From: a virus
Lineage: Duplodnaviria > Heunggongvirae > Uroviricota > Caudoviricetes
Strand: one strand, 5' to 3'
Virus record (IMG/VR): IMGVR_UViG_2693429700_000020
Length of the DNA: 14,388 nucleotides
How positions within the stretch are numbered: position 1 is the stretch's first letter; each line of letters begins with the position of its first letter. Position numbers and translations under genes: made by a program. Below, piece after piece: positions 1 to 14,388 of this stretch. The notes below the pieces were generated by a model. It made no database searches, was not told the origin of the DNA, and saw nothing but the letters and a program-made list of their open reading frames with translations.

Positions 1-87
1 CTGTGAGTCATATTCATCCTGACTTTCCAGAACCATACGAATCGCCCGCTGACGGACTTCGGGGGAAAAACGAGTATTTTTAGTCAT
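1..87 (-). CDS. IS3-family transposase OrfA, N-terminal 29 codons (partial at window edge)
   Basis: ATG at 87..85 preceded by a GAGG ribosome-binding site; translation MTKNTRFSPEVRQRAIRMVLESQDEYDSQ matches the recalled N-terminus of IS629/IS1203-type OrfA. Confidence 0.7.
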   Translation of the reverse strand, partial: MTKNTRFSPEVRQRAIRMVLESQDEYDSQ

Positions 88-141
88 CCTGTTTACCTCT
101 TTCTCAGGGAGTTTAGTCTCCAGGATTTCCGGGGCGGTTCA
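1..141 (-). mobile_element. IS3-family insertion sequence (IS629/IS1203-like), terminal 141 bp; element continues beyond the left window edge
   Basis: Reverse complement of 88-141 reads TGAACCGCCCCGGAAATCCTGGAGACTAAACTCCCTGAGAAAGAGGTAAACAGG, a TGA-initiated terminal inverted repeat as I recall it for IS629-like elements, followed by the orfA start. Recalled from memory, not searched. Confidence 0.7.
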
Positions 142-152
142 GCTAAGCGAGC

Positions 153-247: not shown

Positions 248-1723
248 TTAAGCATACGGGTCATAATCTGTGATGGCCTTGCCTTGCTGGTTCTGCTGCC
301 CAGGAATTCGCAGACGCTTCGACACAGGGAACGCAAACGTCAGCAGTAGCGCATCGCCTTTACCCGGCGAACGCCCAAGACGCTCTTTGATATCTTCCTT
401 CGGTTCGATAACGATTTTACCGTCCACACGAACTTTGTACTCTGCCGCCGACAGGTCGTCTGCTGTTTCCTGGTCATCCAGCATGCCGCCCAGCCTCAGC
501 CATGTCTTGCATGAATTGAACATCTCCCCACGCTTGTTGAGCATCTGCGGGTCAGTAGACGCGCCACCGAACGGAACAAGTTGCCATGTACGACCCCATC
601 CGTCACCGATTGACTTCAGACCGGTTCCGTAACCGAAGTCGATGAACACCGCGTCAGCCTGGTACTGGTCTTCAAAGTCAGCGATACGCTTCGCCATAAT
701 CAGATCGTCGGTGGTCTTGTTACCAGTCCATAGCACCTTACTGTGCAGCCCCTGCCGCAGGTATATCACCGCGTCATCAACGCCTGAGTATGCCGGGTCA
801 ACGCCGATTATCACCGGAGCATGTGCAACCTGCGCAGCGGTTACCACCCGTTTCATTGCCTCATCAGTAAGACCGGTAGGGATAAACTGCAATTCAGATG
901 CATCAGGGAATATGCCGCGCACACGGATTTTAACGAAGTCGCTGTCTTCCCCGTAGTCATCAACCCATTTCAGCAACTGCTGTTTGTTAGTGCCTTCCAC
1001 CGTCCGGCTGTCAATCTGCGCACACTTCCAGCGGTGTTTGTACTTGCGGAAACATTCACGGAAACGCCCGGTGTTACGCGTCGGGTTCCCGAACGCCACC
1101 CAGATGATTTCGGTGTCTTCGTCCGTCAGCGCACCCTCTGCTACCTCCCACACCAGATCGGCAATGTTCGACGCTTCATCGAATACCACGATGATGCGTT
1201 TGCGCTCGTTGTGTAGTCCGGCGAATGCCTCAGTGTTGTGCTCAGACCAGGGGATTGCGTCAGCTCGCCACCGCTTGTCGTGCCCAGGATCATTGCTGTA
1301 CATCGCGGTAGCGGTACAGGTAAACCAGTCTTTCGTGATAGCAAGGTTCGACCACTTGATAATTTCCGGCCAGGTCTTCGTTCGTAGCTGGTTGTCGGTG
1401 TTGGCGGTCACCACGACCTTACAATCCTCGCAGGTGGACATGCCCCAGTTGATCAGCATTGAGATGAATGCGGATTTACCAATACCGTGACCAGAAGCGC
1501 GTGCCAGCATAAGCGGCTGATAGCGCGTCTCTGGATTCTGCAGGTGATCACGTATCTCTCGGAACGCATCAGCCTGCCACTGACGTGGGCCGGTGGCATG
1601 TGCCAGTTCAGTCCCCTCTTCCCCCCACGGGAACGCATAGAGAGCATAGCCAAGCGGATCGTGAGTGAACCCTGCAATATCCTCGATCAACTGCTCTTCA
1701 GGAGATAACGCTGTATCTGTCAC
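248..1723 (-). CDS. terL: Phage terminase large subunit
   Basis: 491-aa ORF with a Walker A-like ARASGHGIGKS motif and terminase ATPase/nuclease-like layout; GTG start at 1723..1721 overlaps the terS stop (GTGA) and has an AGGATGG ribosome-binding site. Confidence 0.88.
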   Translation of the reverse strand: MTDTALSPEEQLIEDIAGFTHDPLGYALYAFPWGEEGTELAHATGPRQWQADAFREIRDHLQNPETRYQPLMLARASGHGIGKSAFISMLINWGMSTCEDCKVVVTANTDNQLRTKTWPEIIKWSNLAITKDWFTCTATAMYSNDPGHDKRWRADAIPWSEHNTEAFAGLHNERKRIIVVFDEASNIADLVWEVAEGALTDEDTEIIWVAFGNPTRNTGRFRECFRKYKHRWKCAQIDSRTVEGTNKQQLLKWVDDYGEDSDFVKIRVRGIFPDASELQFIPTGLTDEAMKRVVTAAQVAHAPVIIGVDPAYSGVDDAVIYLRQGLHSKVLWTGNKTTDDLIMAKRIADFEDQYQADAVFIDFGYGTGLKSIGDGWGRTWQLVPFGGASTDPQMLNKRGEMFNSCKTWLRLGGMLDDQETADDLSAAEYKVRVDGKIVIEPKEDIKERLGRSPGKGDALLLTFAFPVSKRLRIPGQQNQQGKAITDYDPYA

Positions 1724-2316
1724 TGATTACCATCCTGACGTTCTTTGAGTCGCTTCCTGGCTGCCGCTATGCGATCAGCAATTGTCACATTCACATTAAC
1801 ATCCAGGCGTTCTTTGAACGCGTTGACATCAACATGCTTACCAATCAGCTCAAGGTTCTTCACCTTGTCAGGCCATTTAATTTTTTTGAGGATTGTCTCT
1901 ATCGAATCCTCGTTCATGTTCATGATGGTCGATGACAGATCAAAGCCACTAAGCGTAGTGCGCCAGATTTTCGGCCACTCACGGATAGGTTTAAGGCTCC
2001 CATCGTCGTTGAGGATGTCGATCACGTCCATCTGGTCGATCTCCACTAGGCGCATGAGAACGTAATCAGCACTGACGCGCATTCGTTTGTTGCGCTCCTC
2101 CATCAACTCGGCAATCCGTTTTTGAATGCGTTCATCGCGCATCATGACACTGGCTTTAACTGCCGCTGTATTTGGGGAGAATCCTGCGTTAATCGCTGCC
2201 TGAGTCTGGTTTTCAGGCGTTTTGATGTATGACTGGCAATAAGCCTCCTGCATTGCTGTGAGCGGCTTAAATTGCGTTGATTTGCGTTTATAGGTTTTAG
2301 GTTCAGCAGGCATCAT
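1720..2316 (-). CDS. terS: Phage terminase small subunit (Terminase_2-like)
   Basis: Translation from the ATG pair at 2316/2313 (MMPAEPKTYKRK...LTAMQEAYCQSYIKTPENQTQAAINAGFSPNTAAVKASVMMRDERIQKRIAELMEE) matches the recalled small-terminase pattern. The 26 codons upstream in the track ORF are the translation of operator repeats and are not believed to be coding. GGTGG ribosome-binding site before the ATG. Confidence 0.8.
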   Translation of the reverse strand: MMPAEPKTYKRKSTQFKPLTAMQEAYCQSYIKTPENQTQAAINAGFSPNTAAVKASVMMRDERIQKRIAELMEERNKRMRVSADYVLMRLVEIDQMDVIDILNDDGSLKPIREWPKIWRTTLSGFDLSSTIMNMNEDSIETILKKIKWPDKVKNLELIGKHVDVNAFKERLDVNVNVTIADRIAAARKRLKERQDGNQ

Positions 2317-2348
2317 AACCACCGTGGTAATAGTTACCGTTGTGGTAA
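2316..2348. promoter_or_regulatory. Two adjacent operator-like palindromes (TAACC-accgt-GGTAA 2316-2330; TTACC-gttgt-GGTAA 2334-2348) abutting the terS start codon
   Basis: Same 15-bp TTACC-N5-GGTAA palindrome as in the immunity region; centres 18 bp apart; the first overlaps the terS ATG. Confidence 0.6.
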
Positions 2349-2354
2349 TAGTAA

Positions 2355-2386
2355 CATGCAAAATAAAGCCGCCATAGTTGGCGGCA
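2355..2386 (-). terminator. Rho-independent terminator after the 2391-2618 ORF, immediately before the terS operator sites
   Basis: Minus-strand reading gives GCCGCCA-acta-TGGCGGC followed by TTTATTTTG. Confidence 0.65.
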
Positions 2387-2390
2387 GTAT

Positions 2391-2618
2391 TCAAAGTCCA
2401 TCAAATTCATCGTAAAAACTCTCGTCAAGATACCCTTCCCATTTACCGCGAATGAAAATTACATCCTCGCCGCAAGGGTGCTGACTGTCGATAACTATAT
2501 CCCTCCTGGCGCAACCATACTTATGCATGAGAAATTTAACCTCTTTCGGAAAATTTGCTGAGTTATCTCTCATATCTTCAAGGTCGTAGCGTATTTTTGG
2601 CATAACACCTCGTGACAT
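2391..2618 (-). CDS. Hypothetical small protein (70-75 aa); start ambiguous between ATG 2618 and ATG 2603
   Basis: The ATG at 2618..2616 sits at the centre of the GTGACATGTCAC palindrome; the ATG at 2603..2601 is preceded by GAGGTG. No family recognised. Confidence 0.45.
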   Translation of the reverse strand: MSRGVMPKIRYDLEDMRDNSANFPKEVKFLMHKYGCARRDIVIDSQHPCGEDVIFIRGKWEGYLDESFYDEFDGL

Positions 2619-2624
2619 GTCACA
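2601..2624. repeat. Copy 2 of the conserved block with the 12-bp perfect palindrome GTGACATGTCAC (2612-2623)
   Basis: CATAACACCTC-GTGACATGTCACA; overlaps the stop codon of the 2620-2958 gene and the first ATG of the 2391-2618 ORF. Confidence 0.8.
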
Positions 2625-2958
2625 CTATTAATTTCGTTTCATGCCAACCTTTGGTCACCCAGCATTGCGAGTCACCATTACACGGGCATGAATTCACAGG
2701 AACTCTCTCGCCGCACTTACCGCAACGTTTTCTGCTGATCGATTTTATACGCCCGCGCACGCGTGCATCATCCTGGCGGATCAGTAACGCTATATACTCA
2801 CCAAATTCGTAAGGCGCACGCCCGGGGCGACGCGTGGCACAGTTACGCTCCAGCATTTCAATTTCCTGAGCATCAAGCACAATTTCCAGCTTACGCACAC
2901 CAGATGCAGCTTGTCTGGCTCTCTGAGCGGCTTTGCGCTCTGATGCTGATTTAGCCAT
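2620..2958 (-). CDS. Hypothetical basic protein with C-terminal Cys cluster (CGKCG...CPCNG...C), possible zinc-ribbon DNA-binding regulator
   Basis: ATG at 2958..2956 (the track ORF begins one codon earlier at TTG 2961); Lys/Arg-rich N-terminus and CxxC / CxC / C motifs. No confident family assignment. Confidence 0.5.
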   Translation of the reverse strand: MAKSASERKAAQRARQAASGVRKLEIVLDAQEIEMLERNCATRRPGRAPYEFGEYIALLIRQDDARVRGRIKSISRKRCGKCGERVPVNSCPCNGDSQCWVTKGWHETKLIV

Positions 2959-3232
2959 CAATATTTACCTTTATCGCGAACACTTTTACCGGTTTATCAC
3001 CGAAGTGGGGGTGTGTGATTGTTTTCACTTCATATCCTCCATACGGAACATCAATTCTGCAACTGGAGTCGTCGCGCTTCGGATATCCCTTTGTGATAAT
3101 CAGGCGGTCATACTCCCGGAACATAATTCGCTTATTCCAGTAGTCATTACACAGGCGATACTCCTCGGTTTTCTCGCCACGAATCATGGCATCGAAGTAT
3201 TCACCTTTTACGGCAAGTTGCAGGTTAGCCAC
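2951..3232 (-). CDS. ASCH/PUA-like domain protein (DUF3850-like)
   Basis: GTG start at 3232 preceded by AGGAGG; N-terminal LQLAVKGEYFDAMIRGEKTEEYR resembles the ASCH signature as I recall it. Confidence 0.5.
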   Translation of the reverse strand: MANLQLAVKGEYFDAMIRGEKTEEYRLCNDYWNKRIMFREYDRLIITKGYPKRDDSSCRIDVPYGGYEVKTITHPHFGDKPVKVFAIKVNIDG

Positions 3233-3509
3233 GACCTTCCTCCTTTGGCTTGTGAATTTGTATCGTCATGCCGCTTTGAGTGGTGACTACAATGACAGAA
3301 CCAGGCTGAAGGCTGTTAAGATTGAATGCTTCGTAAAACGAATCCAATGCCAGTGCTTTTTTATTCTTTCGGTTCCACCAACGCCATCCCTTGCTACAGG
3401 CTACACTGACAATCCACTGCCCACTCCTGTAAGCCATATAAAACCAGATGAGCAAAACCTGAAGGAAGGCCATCCAGTCAATAATCGTATATTTCGCGAA
3501 GGAGTCCAT
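3225..3509 (-). CDS. Small predicted membrane protein (about 94 aa)
   Basis: ATG at 3509..3507 overlaps the stop of the upstream gene (ATGA-type coupling); hydrophobic segment IIDWMAFLQVLLIWFYMAY. The track ORF 3225-3656 extends further upstream in-frame, but that extension overlaps the preceding gene. Confidence 0.5.
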   Translation of the reverse strand: MDSFAKYTIIDWMAFLQVLLIWFYMAYRSGQWIVSVACSKGWRWWNRKNKKALALDSFYEAFNLNSLQPGSVIVVTTQSGMTIQIHKPKEEGRG

Positions 3510-4309
3510 CAATTCACCTCCTGCGGCGGTTCTGGTAGCGGCATCCAGAACAAGACGTTCCCTAACCACGATAAAGTGCCGTCGCTCAACTCCACGTATT
3601 CCCCTTGTACCTGTCCTGCCATATACTCGCCGTGCTTTGAATAAATTAAAATCCAATCATCTTGAGCGGGCATTCGCTCACTACAGCTTATCCAACCATC
3701 CTGAGTTACCGGAGAGTTGCCATTTACATCGAAGTTTGGCTCTGCGTCCTGAACCAGGAGGATGTAACCATTCTTGGCAGTATCAAGTTCTAACGCCTCG
3801 GTGACGGTGCCGAAATAGCGATTACCTAAATCAGCATCACAAGTGCTTACATCAATGGAAACTTCCATGCCTTCGATTAATTCTGGCAAGTTGTAAGTTT
3901 GGCTTACAGGTTGGCTACCCTGACGCATGGCAGCGTGGCAGGCATCCTCTACGCCCTTAACTGCATCTGCGCAGTAGTTATAGCGATTGCATTCCACTAA
4001 TTTCTGCTTGAAGTTTTCAATTGCTAACTCGATTTCATCCGGCACTACCGGCTCTGGTTGGATAGTGACGTTGGCAAAGGCAGCACGCAAACCGGCCTTA
4101 ATTTCCTCTACTTCATCAGCGCCTAGCGATGAATCTGACAATGCGTGATGGAATGCGTATGCCATGTCGTCGTTTACTGCAACCGGCTCTGCTTCCAGCG
4201 ACGCCAGAGCAATTTCATAAGCACGACGCTCAATATTGTCTCGCACGTCCAGGCTGCCTATGCGCTCTTTGATTTCTTTAATCAGTTCTTTGTCGGTAAA
4301 AGTGGTCAT
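3509..4309 (-). CDS. Ea22-like N-terminal region fused to a DUF551-like C-terminal domain
   Basis: ATG at 4309 with AGGAG ribosome-binding site; N-terminus shares the SLEAEPV motif with the 4585-5061 paralog; C-terminus has WISCSERMP...WMPLPEPP, typical of DUF551 prophage proteins as recalled. Confidence 0.6.
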   Translation of the reverse strand: MTTFTDKELIKEIKERIGSLDVRDNIERRAYEIALASLEAEPVAVNDDMAYAFHHALSDSSLGADEVEEIKAGLRAAFANVTIQPEPVVPDEIELAIENFKQKLVECNRYNYCADAVKGVEDACHAAMRQGSQPVSQTYNLPELIEGMEVSIDVSTCDADLGNRYFGTVTEALELDTAKNGYILLVQDAEPNFDVNGNSPVTQDGWISCSERMPAQDDWILIYSKHGEYMAGQVQGEYVELSDGTLSWLGNVLFWMPLPEPPQEVN

Positions 4310-4319
4310 GTGTTACTCC

Positions 4320-4583
4320 TTAACCCGCAGTGCTTTCAACTGACGAGGGGAATAAAATCGTTTCATCAAATCCGGCATTCATATCATGAACAGCAGCACA
4401 CCAATCCATTGACGAACGATTATCAAGAGCCTCCATGATTTCATCCATGCGGCGTAGGTCATACAGGTAAATGTTTTTATCGCCAATGGTGTAAAAGCCA
4501 ATTTTTTTCGGCGATGGACAGCGATCAAGAACGTCCTGTAAGTCGTTCAACCATGCCCGTTCTTTTTTTGTCAAAGTTGTCAT
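4320..4583 (-). CDS. Hypothetical phage protein (87 aa)
   Basis: ATG at 4583 with AGGAGAG ribosome-binding site; tightly packed in the operon; no family recognised. Confidence 0.5.
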   Translation of the reverse strand: MTTLTKKERAWLNDLQDVLDRCPSPKKIGFYTIGDKNIYLYDLRRMDEIMEALDNRSSMDWCAAVHDMNAGFDETILFPSSVESTAG

Positions 4584-4584
4584 A

Positions 4585-5061
4585 TCACTCTCCTTTGATG
4601 CCTATATTTACAGCCAGGCAAGCTTCTTCGAGCACCCAGTCAACAGCGTCTTTCCACGCACCAGTCCCAACTGGCGGATTCTCATTTTTTACCTGCTCAT
4701 AAAAACGCACCGCTTTAACCAGTCCTTCAGGCACTACAGGTACTGGCAAGGCAGCGTGACAGTAGAGTGGCATAGTTTTGTACAGGGGGGCGCCAGGACT
4801 TCCGTCAACCTGATTCCATTCTTCAACCCAGGCATCAACAACCGCTTTGCTGGTTGATACATGTTCTTCTGAATCTACATTTTGTCCTGATATACAGAAC
4901 ATAACTGGCTCTGCTTCCAGTGATGCGTCCAATACATCAAGCAATGCCAGTACAACCTCCGGCGTAGCCGCAGCATGAAAAGCCTGTAGGTTCTGCCACG
5001 TCGTCTCCTCCTTCGCGACCTCTGCCGCCTCTCGCAGTGCCTGATAGTCAATCTTGCTCAC
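4585..5061 (-). CDS. Ead/Ea22-like family protein
   Basis: GTG start at 5061 with AGGAGG ribosome-binding site; N-terminus MSKIDYQALREAAE... and PEVVLALLDVLD match the recalled Ead/Ea22-like pattern. Confidence 0.6.
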   Translation of the reverse strand: MSKIDYQALREAAEVAKEETTWQNLQAFHAAATPEVVLALLDVLDASLEAEPVMFCISGQNVDSEEHVSTSKAVVDAWVEEWNQVDGSPGAPLYKTMPLYCHAALPVPVVPEGLVKAVRFYEQVKNENPPVGTGAWKDAVDWVLEEACLAVNIGIKGE

Positions 5062-5302
5062 TGGTTGCCTCCTGCTTTTCTGCCTTCAACACCATGCGAG
5101 AACCATCATCCAGCTCCCACGCGATCTCACCACCTTCAGCCATGACCAGTCGCCACACCAATTGAGCAGCCTCATTGGTAACATCACGACCTGGATCATT
5201 GCCAACGCGCATACGTCCACCTTCAACATCGCGCATTTTTGCCAGCATGATAGTTTTTGATAGCGGTGAAAAACCAAGCTGTAGTCGTGCTGAATTACTC
5301 AC
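5048..5302 (-). CDS. Hypothetical phage protein (84 aa)
   Basis: GTG start at 5302 with the same AGGAGGCAACCAGTGAG initiation region as the 4585-5061 gene; overlaps the neighbouring stop. Confidence 0.45.
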   Translation of the reverse strand: MSNSARLQLGFSPLSKTIMLAKMRDVEGGRMRVGNDPGRDVTNEAAQLVWRLVMAEGGEIAWELDDGSRMVLKAEKQEATSEQD

Positions 5303-5832
5303 TGGTTGCCTCCTTTGCGAAGCTCAGCGGCGAAGGCTACTGCGTGATCATGATGTTCAAGTGTGTATGCGCACTCAGCAAACATCTCCACGCCCTGCGC
5401 TCGTACTTCAGCCAGGAAAGCGTCGGTGGCTGGGGTGTCTGATTGCAGAGACTTTGCGCGATAGTCATTCCACCCTCTTGCATACATGGGATTAACTTGC
5501 ACTCCATCTTTTACGCAATATGCCTGCCCTCCACGGTTGATAACCTTGATTTCGTCCATAGCGCCAGACTTCAGCCCCGCATTCTCCGCCGCCAGCGCTG
5601 AAAACTTCTCGTGTGCCAACTTAACAGCTGCATCAGCCTGCTTAATTGACTCAATCGCTTTCTGCTGGTCTTCGGCCAGCGCATTAGCACGCACCAGTTG
5701 CACTTCCAGTTGCGTTGCCAAATCGCTGATCAGCTTTGCCACACTACGCATATCAACGGCACCACATTCTGCTTTCAGTTCCGAAGCCATCTCATGCCCG
5801 GCGGAAACTAACCCTTTGATATTACTTTCCAT
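5299..5832 (-). CDS. Coiled-coil phage protein, possibly Ea22-like
   Basis: ATG at 5832 with GAGGG ribosome-binding site; Ala/Glu/Lys-rich helical N-terminal half plus a globular C-terminal half. Confidence 0.45.
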   Translation of the reverse strand: MESNIKGLVSAGHEMASELKAECGAVDMRSVAKLISDLATQLEVQLVRANALAEDQQKAIESIKQADAAVKLAHEKFSALAAENAGLKSGAMDEIKVINRGGQAYCVKDGVQVNPMYARGWNDYRAKSLQSDTPATDAFLAEVRAQGVEMFAECAYTLEHHDHAVAFAAELRKGGNQ

Positions 5833-5893
5833 CTTTACCCTCGCTTATCCACATAACTTATTGATTACATTGATAACTAAAAAGATCGTCGAT

Positions 5894-6238
5894 TCAGAAC
5901 TCTTCGATGTTCCAGCCACCACCTGCTTTCTTTGGTTTAACCGTTACCCCGATGATTCGGAACGGATATTGATCTGCGGCGACTTTGGTTTTCACCCTGG
6001 CGTCGTCGGTCCAGAAACCTTTCACTTCGTGCAGTTCCATCTCGCCGGTGGCGAGCATCACAGCAAAATCGGGCGTATAGAACGTGTTGTCAGCTAACCG
6101 CAGCTTGAGACCCTCGAATCGATACCAGGCGATTTCCCCTGCACGTTTACGCTGCTCAAGGTGCTGGCAATACGCAGATTCTGTTTTGTTCATCTGGCCT
6201 GTTTTGAGTCGACCAAGAGCCTGTATCTGTTTTCTCAT
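5894..6238 (-). CDS. DUF1064-like protein (PD-(D/E)xK-like fold)
   Basis: ATG at 6238; motifs TPDF ... ELHEVKG fit the DUF1064 pattern as recalled; first gene after the internal operator-flanked promoter. Confidence 0.55.
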   Translation of the reverse strand: MRKQIQALGRLKTGQMNKTESAYCQHLEQRKRAGEIAWYRFEGLKLRLADNTFYTPDFAVMLATGEMELHEVKGFWTDDARVKTKVAADQYPFRIIGVTVKPKKAGGGWNIEEF

Positions 6239-6241
6239 GAT

Positions 6242-6318
6242 TTACCCCTGAGGTAATTAAAAACCACATAAGACACGAAATCAATAGATTTTAGTATATT
6301 TTATTACCCACCAGGTAA
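6242..6318 (-). promoter_or_regulatory. Internal promoter flanked by two perfect operators (TTACCCCTGAGGTAA 6242-6256; TTACCCACCAGGTAA 6304-6318)
   Basis: Minus-strand -35 TTGATT (6284..6279), 17-bp spacer, -10 TTTAAT (6261..6256); operator centres 62 bp apart, the same geometry as the early promoter at 9347-9423. Confidence 0.6.
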
Positions 6319-6330
6319 TCATCTAGACGT

Positions 6331-6350
6331 AAAAAAATGCGCTATCGCGC
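6331..6350 (-). terminator. Weak candidate terminator after the P-like gene (GCGC-gata-GCGC stem followed by seven U)
   Basis: Minus-strand CAGCGCGATAGCGCATTTTTTTAC; the stem is only 4-5 bp, so low confidence. Confidence 0.3.
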
Positions 6351-6355
6351 TGGTA

Positions 6356-7141
6356 TTACTTGATAAATCCTGCCGCCTTTCCCCGCCTGTATTCCTCCAT
6401 CAGCCACTGTGCCGGTGTTATTCCACCCAGGGTGGCGGCGTTAGGCATGCACCCGAAACTTCGCCCTGGCGGGTGGTAAACGTCTCTCCCTGTGTCCGGA
6501 GGCGTACTCATGGGTTCTGGCTTTGCCTGTATGCTGATCACCGGATCGGGTATCTGCTGTCCGGAAGCCACCTTTTTCGCCCAATCATCGAGCAACCTGC
6601 GCGCGTGTTTCTCAACCTCAATCTCGCTAAGCTGGCGCTGATACATTGCGCGGCGGGTATCACATACAACCCAGTACATAACCGGATGCCGCCACGGGAA
6701 TCTTTCGGGACCGCCAGGATATAAACTTTTTTCCTTGCTGTACCGGTGAAACTCCGCCATCACATCGTCAATGGTGACACCAAGAACCATCTTGCTGTCT
6801 TTGCACCACTTGATAAATTGCCCAGGCGACGGCCAGAACGGAGATTCACTGGCGCGGGCGTGGCGCATACCAGCAGAAACCTGTTCACGGGTTCGGATCC
6901 CACCTTCGGCAAACGCAGCAATCCACTGCTGTTTTGCAGCGACTTCCTGCTCTGGCGTCTTCAGGTTGGTTACCACTGCCGCCGGAAACAGTTGTTTCAG
7001 CTGTTTGAAAAGGGCATCAACAAGCCTCTCTGCTGACATGTTCACCACATTGTCATTGTTGACGTACTGATGCTCATAACCTGACATGCGAGAAAGGGCT
7101 TCTCCGTCACGGTTTTGTATCGCGGTAAAAACGTTGTTCAC
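6356..7141 (-). CDS. Lambda P-like replication protein (helicase loader)
   Basis: KQQWIAAFAEGGIRTREQVSAGMRHARASESPFWPSPGQFIKWC parallels the lambda P segment RRQWVLAFRENGITTMEQVNAGMRVARRQNRPFLPSPGQFVAWC (recalled). Likely GTG start at 7141 with GGGAGGA ribosome-binding site, overlapping the O-like stop (GTGA). Confidence 0.85.
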   Translation of the reverse strand: MNNVFTAIQNRDGEALSRMSGYEHQYVNNDNVVNMSAERLVDALFKQLKQLFPAAVVTNLKTPEQEVAAKQQWIAAFAEGGIRTREQVSAGMRHARASESPFWPSPGQFIKWCKDSKMVLGVTIDDVMAEFHRYSKEKSLYPGGPERFPWRHPVMYWVVCDTRRAMYQRQLSEIEVEKHARRLLDDWAKKVASGQQIPDPVISIQAKPEPMSTPPDTGRDVYHPPGRSFGCMPNAATLGGITPAQWLMEEYRRGKAAGFIK

Positions 7142-7953
7142 AAGAAATCCTCCCACGCTTCAGGGCTGTTCCAGTGCGGAACGTTGTTATCAGGTAATGT
7201 TGATTGCTTCTGTCTGCTAATCTGCAGCCGCCTTGCCAGCTTCTGCTCCCACTGTGCCTGATGGTATGCCTTACCCTCAGCCATCCAGTAAATTCTGAAT
7301 TCTGCAAGTTCCTGTGCCGTTGGCAGACTGTCCAGGTAGATTCCCTGCAATGAGCTTTTCCGAAGAAAGTCATCTGATGGTTGCCATTGTTCATGCATGA
7401 CAAATTTGCCTAATTGCCCTGGCCCACCAGGAGGAACAAAGTTATTCATCACGGCGTTGTTTGCGCCGGGGTCATGAGGCACAGAATCCCCGGTTTTTGT
7501 CCTGCTCTCCCTCTCTTGGTTAAATGACTGGTTATATGACTGGTTCTGGATCCCGTTTTTGGGATCATTCAACATCCCGTTTTTGGGATCATTCAACATC
7601 CCGTTTTTGGGTATATTCCCGTTTTCGGGAACATTACCGTTTTCGGGTTCATTACACCCTTCCCGGTTGCCTTTAATGTTCCCGTTTTTGGTTATATTAA
7701 GAGAGAAAACCCGCACTCTTTTCGTCGCTCCCTTTCTCTCTCCGGTATCTGAAATAAGCCCCATTTTCATGAGCGATATAAGCCCGGACTGCACGGTTTT
7801 TTTATTCAGGCAAGTGTCTTTAACGAGGCGTTCTATGCTGGGGTAGCAGAGGTTATATTCATCGGCTCTGTCAGCCATCGAGAGCAGTATGAGCTTTAAT
7901 GATGAGCTACCTGGGTCTGTCTCCCAGGCCCAATCTGTTGCATGTCTGCTCAT
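7138..7953 (-). CDS. Replication initiator (O-like): N-terminal helix-turn-helix domain, repeat-encoded low-complexity linker, C-terminal domain
   Basis: ATG at 7953 with GGAG ribosome-binding site; sits directly upstream of the P-like gene; contains the iteron array, as lambda O contains ori. Confidence 0.7.
   Translation of the reverse strand: MSRHATDWAWETDPGSSSLKLILLSMADRADEYNLCYPSIERLVKDTCLNKKTVQSGLISLMKMGLISDTGERKGATKRVRVFSLNITKNGNIKGNREGCNEPENGNVPENGNIPKNGMLNDPKNGMLNDPKNGIQNQSYNQSFNQERESRTKTGDSVPHDPGANNAVMNNFVPPGGPGQLGKFVMHEQWQPSDDFLRKSSLQGIYLDSLPTAQELAEFRIYWMAEGKAYHQAQWEQKLARRLQISRQKQSTLPDNNVPHWNSPEAWEDFL
7552..7692. repeat. Iteron-like direct repeats (candidate replication origin) inside the O-like gene
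   Basis: CCCGTTTT(T/C)GGG core at 7552, 7576, 7600, 7618, about 7636 and 7681 (periods 24, 24, 18, 18); two exact 24-bp units CCCGTTTTTGGGATCATTCAACAT; a second short repeat ATGACTGGTT at 7525 and 7537. Confidence 0.7.
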
Positions 7954-7968
7954 GATTAATCTCCGCTA

Positions 7969-8169
7969 TCAGCTTGAATGTTGTGGGGAGGAATTAATCA
8001 TGATCTGCTTAATCTCTGCCCTGATGCGACGGTTTGATTCCATGGTGCACTCAACACAGTGTCCGTTGTAAACCCAGCGTTCACTGTCATGTCCGTGCTT
8101 ACATGATTTTCCGGTGTAGTAGCGTTTAAGTCCGCGCTTTGCGGCATCAATACGTGTAATGATTTCCAT
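7969..8169 (-). CDS. Small zinc-finger protein, TraR/DksA-like C4 type (66 aa)
   Basis: ATG at 8169 (the track ORF extends to TTG 8232); C-terminal HCVEC followed by a basic helix resembles the TraR/DksA CVEC zinc-finger motif; occupies the lambda cII position. Confidence 0.4.
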   Translation of the reverse strand: MEIITRIDAAKRGLKRYYTGKSCKHGHDSERWVYNGHCVECTMESNRRIRAEIKQIMINSSPQHSS

Positions 8170-8249
8170 GGTAAGCCCTGTTATTAGTATTGGGATTACG
8201 GTTATTTTGTGCTGACACAAAAAAAAGATCAACCAGATTTGGTTTTTTA

Positions 8250-8264
8250 TTACCTTTAAGGTGC
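8250..8264. promoter_or_regulatory. Imperfect operator-like site TTACC-tttaa-GGTGC just downstream of the tR1-like terminator
   Basis: 8 of 10 specified positions match the TTACC-N5-GGTAA palindrome; the GGTGC half-site is the same variant as at 8618-8632. Confidence 0.4.
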
Positions 8265-8270
8265 GAATAG

Positions 8271-8298
8271 ATATGAAAAGACCGCCGGATGGCGGTCT
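8271..8298 (-). terminator. Rho-independent terminator after the Cro-like gene (tR1-like position)
   Basis: Minus-strand AGACCGCC-atcc-GGCGGTCT followed by TTTCATAT. Confidence 0.6.
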
Positions 8299-8319
8299 AC
8301 AGAGGTTTGTGGCTGGATA

Positions 8320-8550
8320 TCATGAGTAGAAGAAGTATGCCAGTTCTGCTTTTGAGCGCAGCCATTGTCTTGTTTTACAGGCTTTAAAAAGCCCATTCAT
8401 CAATACTTTACCTGGCATTTTGCGCTTACCTGTTAAGTGAGTCTGGATATAGTGACTCGTCGTTCCGGCTTCCTGTGCGAAGGCTTCACGCTCATCCGGA
8501 GTAAGTGCAAGCCAGTGCTTTTTGAAATCGAAATGTCCGTTATCGCTCAT
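8320..8550 (-). CDS. Cro-like small helix-turn-helix DNA-binding protein
   Basis: 76 aa; first gene of the minus-strand operon, divergent from the repressor; candidate HTH at AFAQEAGTTSHYIQTHLTGKR. Confidence 0.5.
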   Translation of the reverse strand: MSDNGHFDFKKHWLALTPDEREAFAQEAGTTSHYIQTHLTGKRKMPGKVLMNGLFKACKTRQWLRSKAELAYFFYS

Positions 8551-8586: not shown

Positions 8587-8649
8587 TCACCCATAAGGTA
8601 ACAAAAATCAAGGATAGTTACCTATGGGGTGCATTTACCTGTTGGGTAA
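8587..8649. promoter_or_regulatory. Operator cluster between the Cro-like and repressor genes: TCACCCATAAGGTAA (8587-8601), TTACCTATGGGGTGC (8618-8632), TTACCTGTTGGGTAA (8635-8649)
   Basis: Three copies (one perfect, two near) of the palindrome in the divergent regulatory region; a minus-strand -35 TTGTTA / -10 TATTAT candidate overlaps the first site. Confidence 0.65.
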
Positions 8650-8704: not shown

Positions 8705-9289
8705 ATGAAAAGTATCCAGGACGTCCGCAGGCAAAATCTCAACGACTTGATCGACCGTGAATTCAATGGTGTTCAGACGCGGATGGCAGAAAAACTTGGA
8801 ACTCAGGCAAATCTGGTAAACCGCTGGGCTCTTGGCAAGAAGGTTATCGGCGACCAGGTTGCGCGAAAAATTGAAGCTGCCGCCAATAAACCCCGTAACT
8901 GGCTTGATATCGATCGCTCGCTTTCTCAGGAGGGGTTTCAGCCTGTCGGCCCAAGCGACATTGGTCAGCTGGCGGCTCACAACCTGGAACGCTGGATGAG
9001 CGAAAGCCGCGACCTTTCAACACAGGGAAAACTTCACCGCGCATCCGGCGTCGCCCAGGTGACAATCAGCCGCCTGTTAAACAATGAGGTCAGTGTTTCC
9101 ATTTCCACCCTGGAGAATGTTGCATCCGCATTCGGGCGTCACGGATATGAACTACTGATTCACCCGCATGACCCTGCAACTATCAACTATGACCGCTCGC
9201 GCTACGCATTGTTACCCGAAACCGAGAAAGCAAAGATCGAAAGTTACATTGAATTTGTCATCAACCAGAACGAAAAAAACAAACAATAA
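8705..9289 (+). CDS. Phage repressor (CI-like role) with two XRE-type helix-turn-helix domains and no S24 peptidase domain
   Basis: 194 aa; HTH-like segments QTRMAEKLGTQANLVNRW and LHRASGVAQVTISRLLNN; lies between the two operator regions like lambda cI; weak ribosome-binding site. Confidence 0.7.
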   Translation: MKSIQDVRRQNLNDLIDREFNGVQTRMAEKLGTQANLVNRWALGKKVIGDQVARKIEAAANKPRNWLDIDRSLSQEGFQPVGPSDIGQLAAHNLERWMSESRDLSTQGKLHRASGVAQVTISRLLNNEVSVSISTLENVASAFGRHGYELLIHPHDPATINYDRSRYALLPETEKAKIESYIEFVINQNEKNKQ

Positions 9290-9310
9290 AATCATATTTT
9301 TCAGTAAGTA

Positions 9311-9336
9311 AGCCGCCTTCTGGCGGCTTTTTTATT
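9311..9336 (+). terminator. Strong rho-independent terminator after the repressor gene
   Basis: AGCCGCC-ttct-GGCGGCT followed by TTTTTATT. Confidence 0.8.
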
Positions 9337-9346
9337 GCCTGTTCAA

Positions 9347-9423
9347 TTACCTAATGGGTAATTTTTTTAACTCATATCTATTGACATCAAACCAGATACG
9401 CATAATTATTACCTAAACGGTAA
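9347..9423 (+). promoter_or_regulatory. Early (pL-like) promoter flanked by two perfect operators (TTACCTAATGGGTAA 9347-9361; TTACCTAAACGGTAA 9409-9423)
   Basis: -35 TTGACA at 9381-9386; -10 within CATAATTAT at 9401-9409; operator centres 62 bp apart, the downstream one overlapping the -10 and start-site region. Confidence 0.7.
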
Positions 9424-13137: not shown

Positions 13138-14388
13138 TTATTCCCCCGCCATCCACTTCTCAAACTTCGACGGGGAGAACGGAATCAGATCCGTATGCTC
13201 CCCGTTAATCCAGGAATCAATCATATCGGCCCACTGCTGCAACATGTAGGCGCGCTGTCTGGCGTATTCCGCTTTGTTATATACGGCGCGCACACCTTTC
13301 TGCTCATGTGCCAAAGCTTTTTCAATCCAGTCTGAAGGATAACCAGCCTCATGCAACAACGTACTGGCTGTACGGCGCATATCATGTACAGTGAAGTCCT
13401 GAATATGCTCACCATCTTCATTTATTATTTTCACCGTTCTGTCGATCAGAGAGTTCAGCGCGGCATTAGATAATGGCTTCCGGAAATTGTAACGACCAGG
13501 AACCAGATATTCACTTCCACCAGCGCACATCTGCAACCCGACCAATATATCCTGTGCCTGTTTAGGCAGGTAAATAACGTGCGCCCGGCTTCCCTTCATG
13601 CGGTCTGGAGGAATTGTCCATGTCCATTTTTTAAAATCTATTTCATCCCACGATGCATTGGTGAATTCGCCCTTACGAACCATAGTGATAAGCACCAGTT
13701 TTAAAGCCATTTTCATAGTGCCCATAGCACCAATGGCATCCAGCGTGCGGAAGAACAGGCCAATTTCTTCTGGTGTCAGTGTTCGCTCTCGTGGTTTAAA
13801 TATGGCGATAGACGAAGGTTTAATGTCAGCCGCAGGATTAAACAAACCATGACCACGGTCATTGGCGTGACGGTATACGCTACTGATGATCTCCCTGGCC
13901 TGCACTGCTGTTGCCCGGCCACCGCGTTCGACAATCCGGTCACACAAATCACGAACCATCGATGTGGTAATTTCAGCCATCATTTTATTGCCAAGAACCG
14001 GAAGTATGTCCCGGTCGATCACCGCCTGTTTCATTGCGCGGGTACTGTCAGCCAGGATGACGTGTTTCATATAACTGTCGGTATGTACCGCAAACGTCTC
14101 GGCACCACGAATCTTTTTGATACCGTCACGTTTAGCCGCAGCCGGTGACTGGCCTGCTTTAAGCAGCTTCTTTGCAGCAATCAGTTCTTCTCGCGCTTCT
14201 GCCAGGCTGATACCGTCACGCCCATACTGCCCGATTACCAGCGTTTCGCGGCGACCGTTGATACGGTAGTCGTAGCGAAACGAGACCGTGCCTGACGTAA
14301 GCACAGCTACATACAGCCCGTCACGATCGGAGACCTTGTACAGTTTGTCCTGCGGCTTGAGGTTTTTTAATTTTGTATCGGTAAGCAC
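13138..14388 (-). CDS. int: Tyrosine integrase, P4-type (N-terminus runs off the right window edge)
   Basis: 416 aa in window; N-terminal LTDTKLKNLKPQDKLYKVSDRDGLYVAV arm-binding-type region; C-terminal HDMRRTASTLLHEAGYPSDWIEKALAH ... VRAVYNKAEY contains the catalytic H-x-x-R and Tyr. Confidence 0.9.
   Translation of the reverse strand: MLTDTKLKNLKPQDKLYKVSDRDGLYVAVLTSGTVSFRYDYRINGRRETLVIGQYGRDGISLAEAREELIAAKKLLKAGQSPAAAKRDGIKKIRGAETFAVHTDSYMKHVILADSTRAMKQAVIDRDILPVLGNKMMAEITTSMVRDLCDRIVERGGRATAVQAREIISSVYRHANDRGHGLFNPAADIKPSSIAIFKPRERTLTPEEIGLFFRTLDAIGAMGTMKMALKLVLITMVRKGEFTNASWDEIDFKKWTWTIPPDRMKGSRAHVIYLPKQAQDILVGLQMCAGGSEYLVPGRYNFRKPLSNAALNSLIDRTVKIINEDGEHIQDFTVHDMRRTASTLLHEAGYPSDWIEKALAHEQKGVRAVYNKAEYARQRAYMLQQWADMIDSWINGEHTDLIPFSPSKFEKWMAGE

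Follow-up and report, generated by a model that had tools for sequence, protein, structure and literature searches.

The window analysed here, a 14,388-nt stretch of viral DNA, carries the ordinary early region of an E. coli prophage of the phiV10/ε15 type (Uetakevirus), its early-right arm included. It is ~97% identical to phiV10/PAS61, with the PAS61 alignment covering 84% of the window at 97.6% identity, and it matches phiV10, ε15 and Tyrion gene by gene in the Uetakevirus order cro, replication genes, ea/nin-like genes, gp49/p55 and terS-terL. The right edge of the window is the int start codon. Compared with phiV10 and ε15 (NC_007804, NC_004775), the gene order is the same and the terminators and TTACC-N5-GGTAA sites are equally placed, whereas two features set this copy apart: an IS1203-type insertion follows terL, and an additional orf75 separates p55 from the terminator. 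The genes and landmarks are as follows.

1-148, minus strand: terminal part of an IS3-family (IS1203/IS629-type) insertion sequence, in the 3' end of a p03-like gene, downstream of terL
178-197: hairpin separating terL from the convergent p03-like gene, a terminator in the phiV10 annotation
248-1723, minus strand: terminase large subunit gene (terL)
1720-2316, minus strand: terminase small subunit gene (terS)
2391-2618, minus strand: orf75 (phrog_1541, function unknown), an accessory insertion between p55 and terminator t_D
2620-2958, minus strand: p55-like gene (ε15 gp49 / phiV10 p55 / N15 gp46 family), candidate late regulator
5894-6238, minus strand: DUF1064 gene, first in unit C
6356-7156, minus strand: lambda-P-family replication gene (PF06992, E 1.5e-56)
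7138-7953, minus strand: DnaT/HTH_36 replication initiator gene
7969-8169, minus strand: p42-like gene (66 aa, phrog_1081), first in unit B
8320-8550, minus strand: Cro-like gene (76 aa, phrog_35 'transcriptional repressor')
8705-9289, plus strand: Rep, SPC32H-type prophage repressor with two HTH regions (5D50; HTH_3)

The IS end is 98.7% identical to an 'IS3-like element IS1203 family transposase' found in thousands of plasmids, and phage homology starts at ~141-160. Read on the plus strand, the 178-197 hairpin has a good T-tract; on the terL strand its T-tract is poor. Only some relatives have orf75. Iteron arrays at 7517-7655, inside the DnaT/HTH_36 gene, are likely the origin.

Three intrinsic terminators punctuate the minus-strand arm, and would split it into cro-like, p42-dnaT-P, DUF1064 to p55 (plus orf75), and terS-terL transcription units. 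A fourth, post-rep terminator opens a plus-strand unit that the sequence-only reading had not listed.

8271-8298, minus strand: terminator t_B, 3' of the cro-like gene (−15.0 kcal/mol, z −4.4; stem 8298-8279), annotated in phiV10
6331-6350, minus strand: weak terminator t_C, GCGC-GATA-GCGC-A-T7 (−7.4 kcal/mol, z −1.5; hairpin 6350-6339, T7 6337-6331), annotated in phiV10
2358-2385, minus strand: terminator t_D, GCCGCC-AACTAT-GGCGGC plus T-tract (−15.8 kcal/mol, z −3.9; stem 2385-2368)
9310-9423, plus strand: fourth (PL-like) unit, with terminator 9310-9329 (−18.7 kcal/mol, z −5.0) and operators O_E1 (9347-9361) and O_E2 (9409-9423)

Three of the four terminators are strong, and t_B and t_D are both in the top three terminator-like matches of a window scan. 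The 6331-6350 hairpin had been called weak, and its folding energy agrees; read-through at t_C is therefore likely. Even so, phiV10, ε15 and Tyrion all keep the t_C stem and its T7 run.

Each terminator is followed by copies of one 15-bp palindrome, TTACC-N5-GGTAA.

2316-2330: operator O_D2 (TTACCACGGTGGTTA, one mismatch), lying over the ribosome-binding region of terS and its start codon
2334-2348: operator O_D1, perfect; the homologous ε15 position, 12-27, is an annotated repressor site
6242-6256: operator O_C2, perfect, overlapping the −10 by 1 nt and lying over the unit C start site and SD region
6304-6318: operator O_C1, perfect, an annotated repressor site in ε15 (35906-35922)
8250-8264: operator O_B, GCACC-N5-GGTAA, two mismatches, its position kept in four phages
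8587-8649: immunity-region operators O_A3 (8587-8601), O_A2 (8618-8632) and O_A1 (8635-8649)

The window contains six perfect copies (0.01 expected) and 18 copies with two or fewer mismatches (4.1 expected), and neither count was equalled in any of the shuffles by which enrichment was judged. The copies begin 14-20 nt past each of the three minus-strand terminators, and the terminator-then-site arrangement is found in all four units of the window and at five of the eight annotated terminators of phiV10. The three minus-strand units claimed from sequence are real, and a single palindrome family accounts for all five of their sites. O_A1-O_A3 overlap the divergent rep and cro promoters, with a promoter-like site at 8604-8576; the earlier reading had made no link between its sites and these three rep/cro intergenic copies (8587, 8618, 8635). 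The sites occupy homologous regulatory positions in ε15, phiV10 and Tyrion. The ε15 RefSeq record marks seven of them as 'protein_bind: repressor', including those before terS and the post-replication gene, and the fourth-unit sites are likewise annotated there. Across relatives, identity is 100% in the half-sites, 62% in the spacers and 76% in the flanks, and the half-sites are identical in all complete relatives examined; invariant half-sites with variable spacers point to DNA bound by a protein dimer and not to plain sequence conservation. Two mosaic loci that lack Rep retain the late-unit sites, these loci being recent or uncertain. Judged by their sequence and placement, the TTACC-N5-GGTAA copies are genuine operator-type sites of the phage immunity system.

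Putative promoter elements lie among these operators.

6256-6284, minus strand: putative promoter P_C, −35 TTGATT (6284-6279), 17-nt spacer, −10 TTTAAT (6261-6256)
9381-9409, plus strand: putative fourth-unit promoter, −35 TTGACA (9381-9386), −10 AATTAT (9404-9409)
8227-8244, minus strand: AACCAAATCTGGTT element (8244-8231), overlapping a putative −35 TTGATC (8232-8227) of unit B
2348-2356, minus strand: putative extended −10 (TG-T-TACTAT), abutting O_D1, conserved in five phages

In unit C and the fourth unit (E), O1 and O2 are spaced equally, with 62 bp or about six helical turns between their centres, and both units have the same cassette order around a putative sigma-70-type promoter: O1, ~20 bp, −35, 17 bp, −10, and O2 overlapping the −10 by one base. 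This O1-promoter-O2 cassette, in which O1 and O2 might be joined by looping, is unmarked in public phiV10 and ε15 annotations. The P_C hexamers are conserved across four phages and the spacer is variable. O_D1 and O_D2 are 18 bp apart, centre to centre. Unit D has no −35, since the terminator fills that space; with only a weak, putative extended −10, terS may not have an autonomous promoter.

The terS start is likely ATG 2316 or 2313, and not TTG 2394 as in the phiV10 and PGAP annotations. Specifically, the long form would enclose one terminator and two operators, its Terminase_2 domain begins at residue 45, and the short form is annotated in ε15 and Tyrion.

The sequence-only reading had stated that neither an Arg-rich N-like protein nor a recognisable lambda Q homolog is encoded, and the profile searches uphold this. 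Searches of the window with Pfam, PHROGs, NCBIfam and Rfam, and by fold, gave no homolog of N or Q: no ORF matched an N family with an arginine-rich motif (Pfam, PHROGs, NCBIfam), no Q family was recovered by sequence or fold, and no known RNA element was matched in Rfam. The annotated genomes of relatives contain no N or Q homolog either. The organization resembles that of lambda in its divergent early operons around an immunity region and its terminators inside the early arm, and the order p55, t_D, terS is analogous in position to Q and tR', a small candidate regulator gene lying directly before the terminator preceding the late genes; no promoter is seen between p55 and t_D. Unlike in lambda, every terminator appears to be followed by a separate promoter for the next unit, guarded by operators, and lysis genes do not head the late operon.

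Rep aligns over its full length with the solved SPC32H Rep (5D50; E 4e-42, residues 1-190), and its N-terminal region is well conserved. SPC32H Rep is a tetramer on palindromic DNA (PMC9638917), and in the close relative ZX5 overexpression of the repressor lowers holin and endolysin transcripts by >99.9% (PMC9782041). A tetrameric, palindrome-binding Rep like that of the SPC32H Rep/Ant switch (5D50, 5D4Z) would suit the paired operators of the window, which are 17-18 bp or 62 bp apart; the LexA-controlled antirepressor gene of that switch is not within this window, and phiV10 has a Bro-N antirepressor-like gene. We propose that the SPC32H-type Rep (8705-9289) uses TTACC-N5-GGTAA as its operator, which the Cro-like protein probably recognises as well. 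In a lysogen, Rep tetramers would sit on every unit and silence it directly, while the terminators would insulate the units from one another, most clearly after rep, where the terminator would block the rep transcript from the co-directional recET operon. Upon antirepressor induction, all units would be derepressed together. Since each unit would restart at its own promoter, the terminators need presumably not be overridden and an N- or Q-type antiterminator would be unnecessary. Repressor-gated units that restart after each terminator without N or Q are the best explanation of the locus, and we consider it a probable one; repressor-operator control would then stand in place of antitermination. 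The terminator-operator layout and the distant lysis genes are already known for phiV10/ε15-type phages.

Mycobacteriophage L5 offers a parallel, as its repressor acts directly on many units through spread sites. L5 stoperators are asymmetric, orientation-dependent and within transcribed regions. The window likewise belongs to a system with many copies of one repressor site genome-wide, late regions included, but its sites are symmetric palindromes at putative promoters after terminators. An earlier report mentions multiple asymmetric operators in mycobacteriophages (PMC1934351).

An alternative is that the 15-mers are RNA hairpins bound by an N-like antiterminator that is not recognised as such. 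The boxB of lambda has a 5-bp stem and a 5-nt loop, exactly the 5-5-5 geometry of the 15-mers, and p55 has an Arg/Lys-rich N-terminal helix. However, boxB loops are the recognition element, whereas the 15-mer loops are the least conserved part (62%). In addition, the sites lie downstream of the terminators and not between promoter and terminator, the O1 copies are upstream of their unit's −35, and three copies overlap the divergent rep/cro promoters. No nut- or qut-like elements were found, the 15-mers sitting after terminators with non-conserved centres, and the missing Rfam and N-family matches point the same way. The boxB-like reading is disfavoured, and we regard it as extremely improbable. 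Only slightly less remote is the idea, raised in the earlier reading, that the element is defective or satellite-like and has lost Q and its lysis genes. It would explain why the window lacks Q, holin and endolysin and why an IS is inserted beside terL, and family searches confirm that no holin or endolysin lies between the replication or nin-like genes and terS. Yet this very gene order is that of phiV10, ε15, PAS61, ZX5 and Tyrion, all viable phages with their lysis genes placed just before attP-int, so the missing Q/lysis block is no sign of defect. In phiV10, ε15 and Tyrion, the holin, endolysin and Rz/Rz1 genes follow the tail-fibre/O-antigen genes and precede attP-int. An intact relative at guaA continues into head genes directly past terL, and the IS occupies the 3' end of the accessory p03-like gene, not a known essential gene. 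The suggestion that lysis and late-regulatory genes lie beyond the IS is correct only trivially, as ~25 kb of structural genes intervene and the lysis genes are at the other end of the prophage, int adjoining guaA.

The proposal that regulation is entirely repressor-based holds only in part: the operators and the lack of an N or Q homolog favour it, whereas two more conserved palindromes and p55 speak against it. With these palindromes and a DNA-binding-type p55, Rep would share control of the delayed and late units with further factors, on which the late units probably depend for their timing. The p55 protein (112 aa, 23 K/R against 13 D/E, net charge ~+10) combines a predicted RHH-like fold with a Cys4 module, which makes it a late-regulator candidate. 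It was compared with the ribbon-helix-helix proteins CopG, Arc and MetJ and, in its C-terminal half, with the C4 zinc fingers of the DksA/TraR RNA-polymerase binders; neither it nor 56 diverse relatives fell into a Pfam or NCBIfam family. Two copies of a palindrome, GTGAC-NN-GTCAC, accompany it in the window.

2612-2623: copy i of the GTGACATGTCAC palindrome, which overlaps the stop codon of p55
162-173: copy ii of the GTGACATGTCAC palindrome, 4 nt away from the 178-197 hairpin, its position kept in phiV10, ε15, Tyrion and L086

A rival explanation for the late unit is that p55 binds this palindrome and is required for terS and late expression, as an activator of a promoter before terS or as a modulator of t_D, the terS operators serving only to silence the prophage; it is compatible with repressor-gated restart of the early units. 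We take it seriously while leaning against it. In all Uetakevirus genomes examined, p55 closes the series of conserved early genes and immediately precedes terS, and the palindrome is found within 45 nt of the stop in 75 of 83 distinct p55-family gene 3' ends (background 0.046 per kb), among them those of members of 32-43% identity, N15 gp46 and ZF40 gp22. Moreover, ε15 and N15 have three perfect copies each (0.02-0.03 expected), a P22-like control without a p55 gene has none, and Vibrio phage K303 has one copy ~20 nt before terS; unit D, for its part, has neither a −35 nor the second palindrome, AACCATATATGGTT. On the other hand, p55 resembles none of the Q, N or Ltr families in sequence or fold, both further copies in the genome are found beside terminators where convergent genes end and not upstream of late genes, and the palindrome is absent from the Yersinia member and a few others. 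Its distance from the terS promoter region also varies, from ~60 nt in ε15 and ~80 nt in phiV10 to ~260 nt here, where orf75 is inserted.

By its small, basic make-up and pre-terS position, p55 fits the definition of the Ltr late activators of Gram-positive siphophages (RinA, LtrC, ArpU; PMC3753634), and by this analogy p55 and the palindrome upstream of terS are candidates for Ltr-like activation. It differs from them in having no detectable sequence homology, in its RHH-like plus Cys4 composition and in the placement of other palindrome copies at operon ends beside terminators.

AACCATATATGGTT is found at five delayed or late promoter regions, one copy of this type, CTTATGTGGTT (6272-6262), lying within the P_C spacer. 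This motif and GTGAC-NN-GTCAC appear undescribed and are unmarked in public annotations. More tentatively still, a small basic, RHH-like/Cys4 protein of the p55 type and (T)GTGAC-NN-GTCAC(A) may form an undescribed pair in ε15-like, N15-like, ZF40-like and many Vibrio phages that governs passage from early to terS/late expression, with AACCATATATGGTT marking delayed and late promoters. If so, this pair, and not an N/Q antiterminator, would control the ε15-like early-to-late passage by activation or by modulation of termination; one palindrome copy would lie at the 3' end of the p55-type gene and about two more per genome beside operon-boundary terminators, and AACCATATATGGTT would be the mark of the delayed and late promoter class. 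By eye, LexA-box-like sequences are also visible downstream of p55 in some relatives.

The window comes from a further prophage of the phiV10 type. Roughly 84% of the window aligns at 97–98% identity to the Escherichia phages PAS61, phiv142-3, TL-2011b, ZX5 and phiV10, which belong to the genus Uetakevirus (ε15-like podophages), and many E. coli chromosomes hold prophages that match it. Its genes are arranged as follows.

1 to ~148: end of an IS1203-type insertion sequence
248-1723, minus strand: terL
1720-2316, minus strand: terS
after terS: orf75, a p55-like gene and ea/nin-like genes (DUF4752, DUF551, Ea22, DUF7446, DUF1064)
6356-7156, minus strand: lambda-P-family gene
7138-7953, minus strand: DnaT/HTH_36 initiator gene
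7969-8169, minus strand: p42
8320-8550, minus strand: cro-like gene
8705-9289, plus strand: repressor gene (rep)
between the repressor gene and the integrase gene, plus strand: recE/recT-like, AlpA-like, PerC-like, MT-A70 methylase and DUF1382 genes
13138-14388, minus strand: integrase gene

The insertion sequence, an IS3-family element of IS1203/IS629 type, sits at the 3′ end of an accessory p03-like gene downstream of terL; beyond its insertion point, intact relatives (L086) carry a tRNA-Arg gene and head genes. Inside the initiator gene, three adjoining tandem-repeat arrays at 7517-7655 (12 bp × 2.4; 24 bp × 2.6, 100% identity; 18 bp × 3.1) resemble origin iterons lying within an initiator gene, an arrangement also found in lambda O.

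The three minus-strand intrinsic terminators described in the sequence-only reading are all present at the places assigned to them. Specifically, the terminator after the cro-like gene (t_B, stem 8298-8279, −15.0 kcal/mol, z −4.4) and that after p55 and orf75 (t_D, stem 2385-2368, −15.8 kcal/mol, z −3.9) are strong, and that after the P gene (t_C, 6350-6331, −7.4 kcal/mol, z −1.5) is weak; the stem and T7 run of t_C are kept in three other phages despite this weakness. The five operator-like sites of the same reading proved to be copies of one palindrome, TTACC-N5-GGTAA, which occurs in the window in six perfect copies versus 0.01 expected, and in 18 copies with at most two mismatches versus 4.1 expected, neither count being reached by any shuffle. 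That reading had missed three copies between rep and the cro-like gene (8587, 8618 and 8635), as well as a fourth terminator-then-operator unit, on the plus strand after rep. In this unit, a terminator (t_E, 9310-9329, −18.7 kcal/mol) is followed by operator-type sites at 9347 and 9409, between which lies the top promoter-like match in the window, TTGACA-17-AATTAT (9381-9409).

Homologous positions in phiV10, ε15 (from Salmonella) and Tyrion (from Enterobacter) carry TTACC-N5-GGTAA sites. Across these whole genomes, sites lie ahead of every major unit, preceding terS, the head genes, the tail fibre, the lysis cassette, int, the PL-like operon, the immunity region, the post-cro unit and the unit after the replication genes. 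In phiV10, whose record annotates the terminators, five of the eight are followed by operator-type sites within 60 nt in the direction of transcription. Seven of the sites, among them the ones ahead of terS and of the first gene past the replication block, are annotated as "protein_bind: repressor" in the ε15 RefSeq record. When six homologous sites are compared between four phages, identity is 100% in the half-sites, 62% in the five central bases and 76% in the neighbouring flanks; at the sequence level, this is the pattern produced by a dimeric protein reading two half-sites. The half-sites are identical in all complete relatives (phiV10, ε15, Tyrion and PAS61). A reading of the sites as boxB-like elements was rejected.

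Alignment of each unit across the four phages defines the anatomy of a promoter-operator cassette, in which conservation places the putative promoters of units B to E, the transcription units that restart after t_B to t_E. Units C (after the P gene) and E (after rep) share the order terminator, first operator (O1), ~20 bp, −35, 17-bp spacer, −10, second operator (O2). The −35 (TTGATT and TTGACA, respectively) and −10 (TTTAAT and AATTAT) are conserved and the 17-bp spacer is variable; the last T of the −10 doubles as the first T of O2, and in both units the centres of O1 and O2 are separated by 62 bp. Unit B (after the cro-like gene) has an O1-type site and a −35-like TTGATC, with a mere half-site past the putative −10. 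Unit D, which leads into terS, repeats the junction of −10 and TACC, here with an extended −10 (TG-n-TACTAT followed by TACC), and has two operators 18 bp apart, the second of which spans the terS ribosome-binding region and ATG. Unit D has no −35, because the terminator hairpin occupies that position.

Two annotation matters touch unit D. The phiV10 and PGAP annotations start terS from a TTG equivalent to 2394 (224 aa), a form that would enclose an intrinsic terminator and two operators in coding sequence; a start at ATG 2316/2313, which gives 198 aa and is the one chosen in the ε15 and Tyrion annotations, is more likely. In addition, orf75 (2391-2618; phrog_1541, function unassigned) sits between the p55 stop codon with its palindrome and t_D. 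It occurs in roughly one third of close relatives and is missing from phiV10, PAS61 and ε15, and because of this patchy presence it looks like a moron-type accessory gene.

The window repressor, Rep, is a full-length homolog of the SPC32H Rep of solved structure (5D50, E 4e-42), which binds palindromic DNA as a tetramer and is taken off by an antirepressor (PMC9638917). In the close relative ZX5, overexpression of the identical repressor reduces holin and endolysin transcripts by >99.9% (PMC9782041). The arrangement that we consider probable is one of Rep-gated modular units with insulating terminators, in which no antitermination is needed. Rep would silence each unit directly, at that unit's own promoter, and the terminators would keep the units insulated from one another, most clearly after rep, where the terminator would block the constitutive rep transcript from the co-directional recET operon. 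Removal of Rep would then derepress all units, and since each unit would be restarted by its own promoter, processive antitermination would be unnecessary. For this phage, we infer Rep binding, the promoter positions, O1-O2 looping and that the terminators are not overridden. Such logic differs from the lambda N/Q cascade and is closer to that of phages with a repressor acting at numerous sites throughout the genome.

Consistent with the sequence-only reading, profile searches of Pfam, PHROGs and NCBIfam place no window ORF in a family of N, Q, holin or endolysin proteins; Rfam gives no known RNA element in the window, and no antiterminator is present in the annotation of the complete phiV10, ε15 and Tyrion genomes. 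That reading had offered three explanations. Regulation based entirely on a repressor agrees with the operator-type sites at the units and is too simple, as two further conserved elements, AACCATATATGGTT and GTGACATGTCAC, were found. A place for the lysis genes beyond the insertion sequence holds in a trivial sense only: in phiV10, ε15 and Tyrion, holin, endolysin and Rz/Rz1 genes lie past the tail-fibre and O-antigen-modification genes, directly upstream of attP-int, and in the integrated prophage int adjoins guaA, so the lysis genes would be at the far end of the prophage and not adjacent to the window. A defective or satellite-like element finds no support in the puzzling gene order, which is the norm for Uetakevirus and is uninformative on defectiveness.

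The first additional element, AACCATATATGGTT, is a conserved palindrome with the core CATATRTGGTT. In phiV10, ε15 and Tyrion, the regulatory DNA of units B and C contains it, as does that of the head, tail-fibre and lysis units, and it is missing from PR and from unit D; phiV10 has eight matches versus 1.2 expected. Measured from O1, the element lies 42-54 bp further downstream (20 bp for unit B) and covers the −35 and spacer part of the putative promoters, at these positions.

window: 6262-6272 and 8231-8244
phiV10 (L002): 3308, 20921, 24736, 33132 and 35116

The second element, GTGACATGTCAC, is a 12-bp palindrome (GTGAC-NN-GTCAC) with the following copies.

window: 162-173 and 2612-2623 (0.04 expected)
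phiV10 (L002): 2262 and 19493
ε15 (L003): 2142, 19517 and 39612
N15 (L165): 28550, 33237 and 39269

In each Uetakevirus genome it marks three homologous places: one copy overlaps the p55-like stop codon, upstream of t_D, one adjoins a hairpin between terL and the convergent p03, and one directly precedes the terminator that closes the long structural operon. About three copies are present per genome, of which one is located at the 3′ terminus of the p55-family gene and the rest beside operon-end terminators. In the window, the insertion sequence ends 14 nt from the copy at 162-173.

Clustering at 50% identity divides the p55 family into 151 clusters. PHROGs lists the family as phrog_536, "transcriptional regulator", and Pfam has no family for it. 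Of 83 distinct contexts of p55-family genes, 75 have GTGAC-NN-GTCAC within 45 nt of the stop codon, compared with a background of 0.046 per kb. This coupling includes members just 32-43% identical in unrelated neighbourhoods, as well as N15 gp46 and ZF40 gp22, and extends over Vibrio phages and phages like ε15, N15 and ZF40. Three perfect copies are present in N15 versus 0.03 expected, a P22-like phage without a p55 gene has none, and Vibrio phage K303 has one ~20 nt before terS.

Two other identities of the palindrome were rejected. As a CRP or LexA site, GTGACATGTCAC disagrees with the respective consensus in spacing and sequence; as an RNA hairpin, its 2-nt loop is unfoldable, and it has no complementarity to the adjoining terminator arms. 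A marginal profile match of p55 to TraR and YbiI (E ~0.03) was unsupported by fold searches, and a first structure model of p55, built from close homologs only, was set aside (pLDDT 60). By its position and its general properties, p55 is similar to the late activators of Ltr (RinA) type in Gram-positive phages, without detectable homology; two of three palindrome copies lie at operon ends and not before late genes. We tentatively raise p55 as a possible late or boundary regulator, a role compatible with Rep-based control of the early units.

Terminators, genome-wide repressor sites, the order of the genes and the Rep/antirepressor switch were documented earlier for ε15, phiV10 and SPC32H, and the finding as posed is therefore already known. 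The observation holds, its interpretation is supported in part only, and as normal annotated ε15/phiV10-type architecture the finding has little impact. What it offers is a clear case of a temperate phage that would gate every unit by post-terminator repressor sites, not by an antitermination cascade. More useful are the two conserved cis-elements and the conserved protein at the early/late boundary. The cassette with its 62-bp spacing, AACCATATATGGTT and the p55-palindrome pair all appear unrecorded in annotations and the searchable literature, the key ε15 and SPC32H papers aside; for GTGACATGTCAC, the literature search returned no paper on the sequence and public records held no annotation. 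The p55-palindrome pair is a lead worth following: if it were the late switch, it would answer how late genes are timed in widespread serotype-converting prophages and define a regulator family common to N15-like and Vibrio phages.

In two mosaic loci, a lambda/1H12-type PR arm (L066, 1-9700) or a P22/IME10-type PL arm (L052, 1-10400) connects via shared ea-type genes to a block made up of p55, the terminator, the two operators, terS and late genes of ε15 type; neither a Rep nor a Cro of that type is encoded nearby. Each may be an assembly chimera or a product of inter-prophage recombination; if they are real, viable phages, the late module works without this Rep. terS does not come next after p55 in many Salmonella, Klebsiella or Citrobacter-type relatives; its place is taken by a LexA-box-like sequence (by eye, TACTGT-N8-ACAGTA, 20-70 nt past the p55 stop codon in L090, L097, L157 and similar loci) and a gene whose product begins MGFPSP..., which together may be the SOS-controlled module of an SPC32H-type switch.
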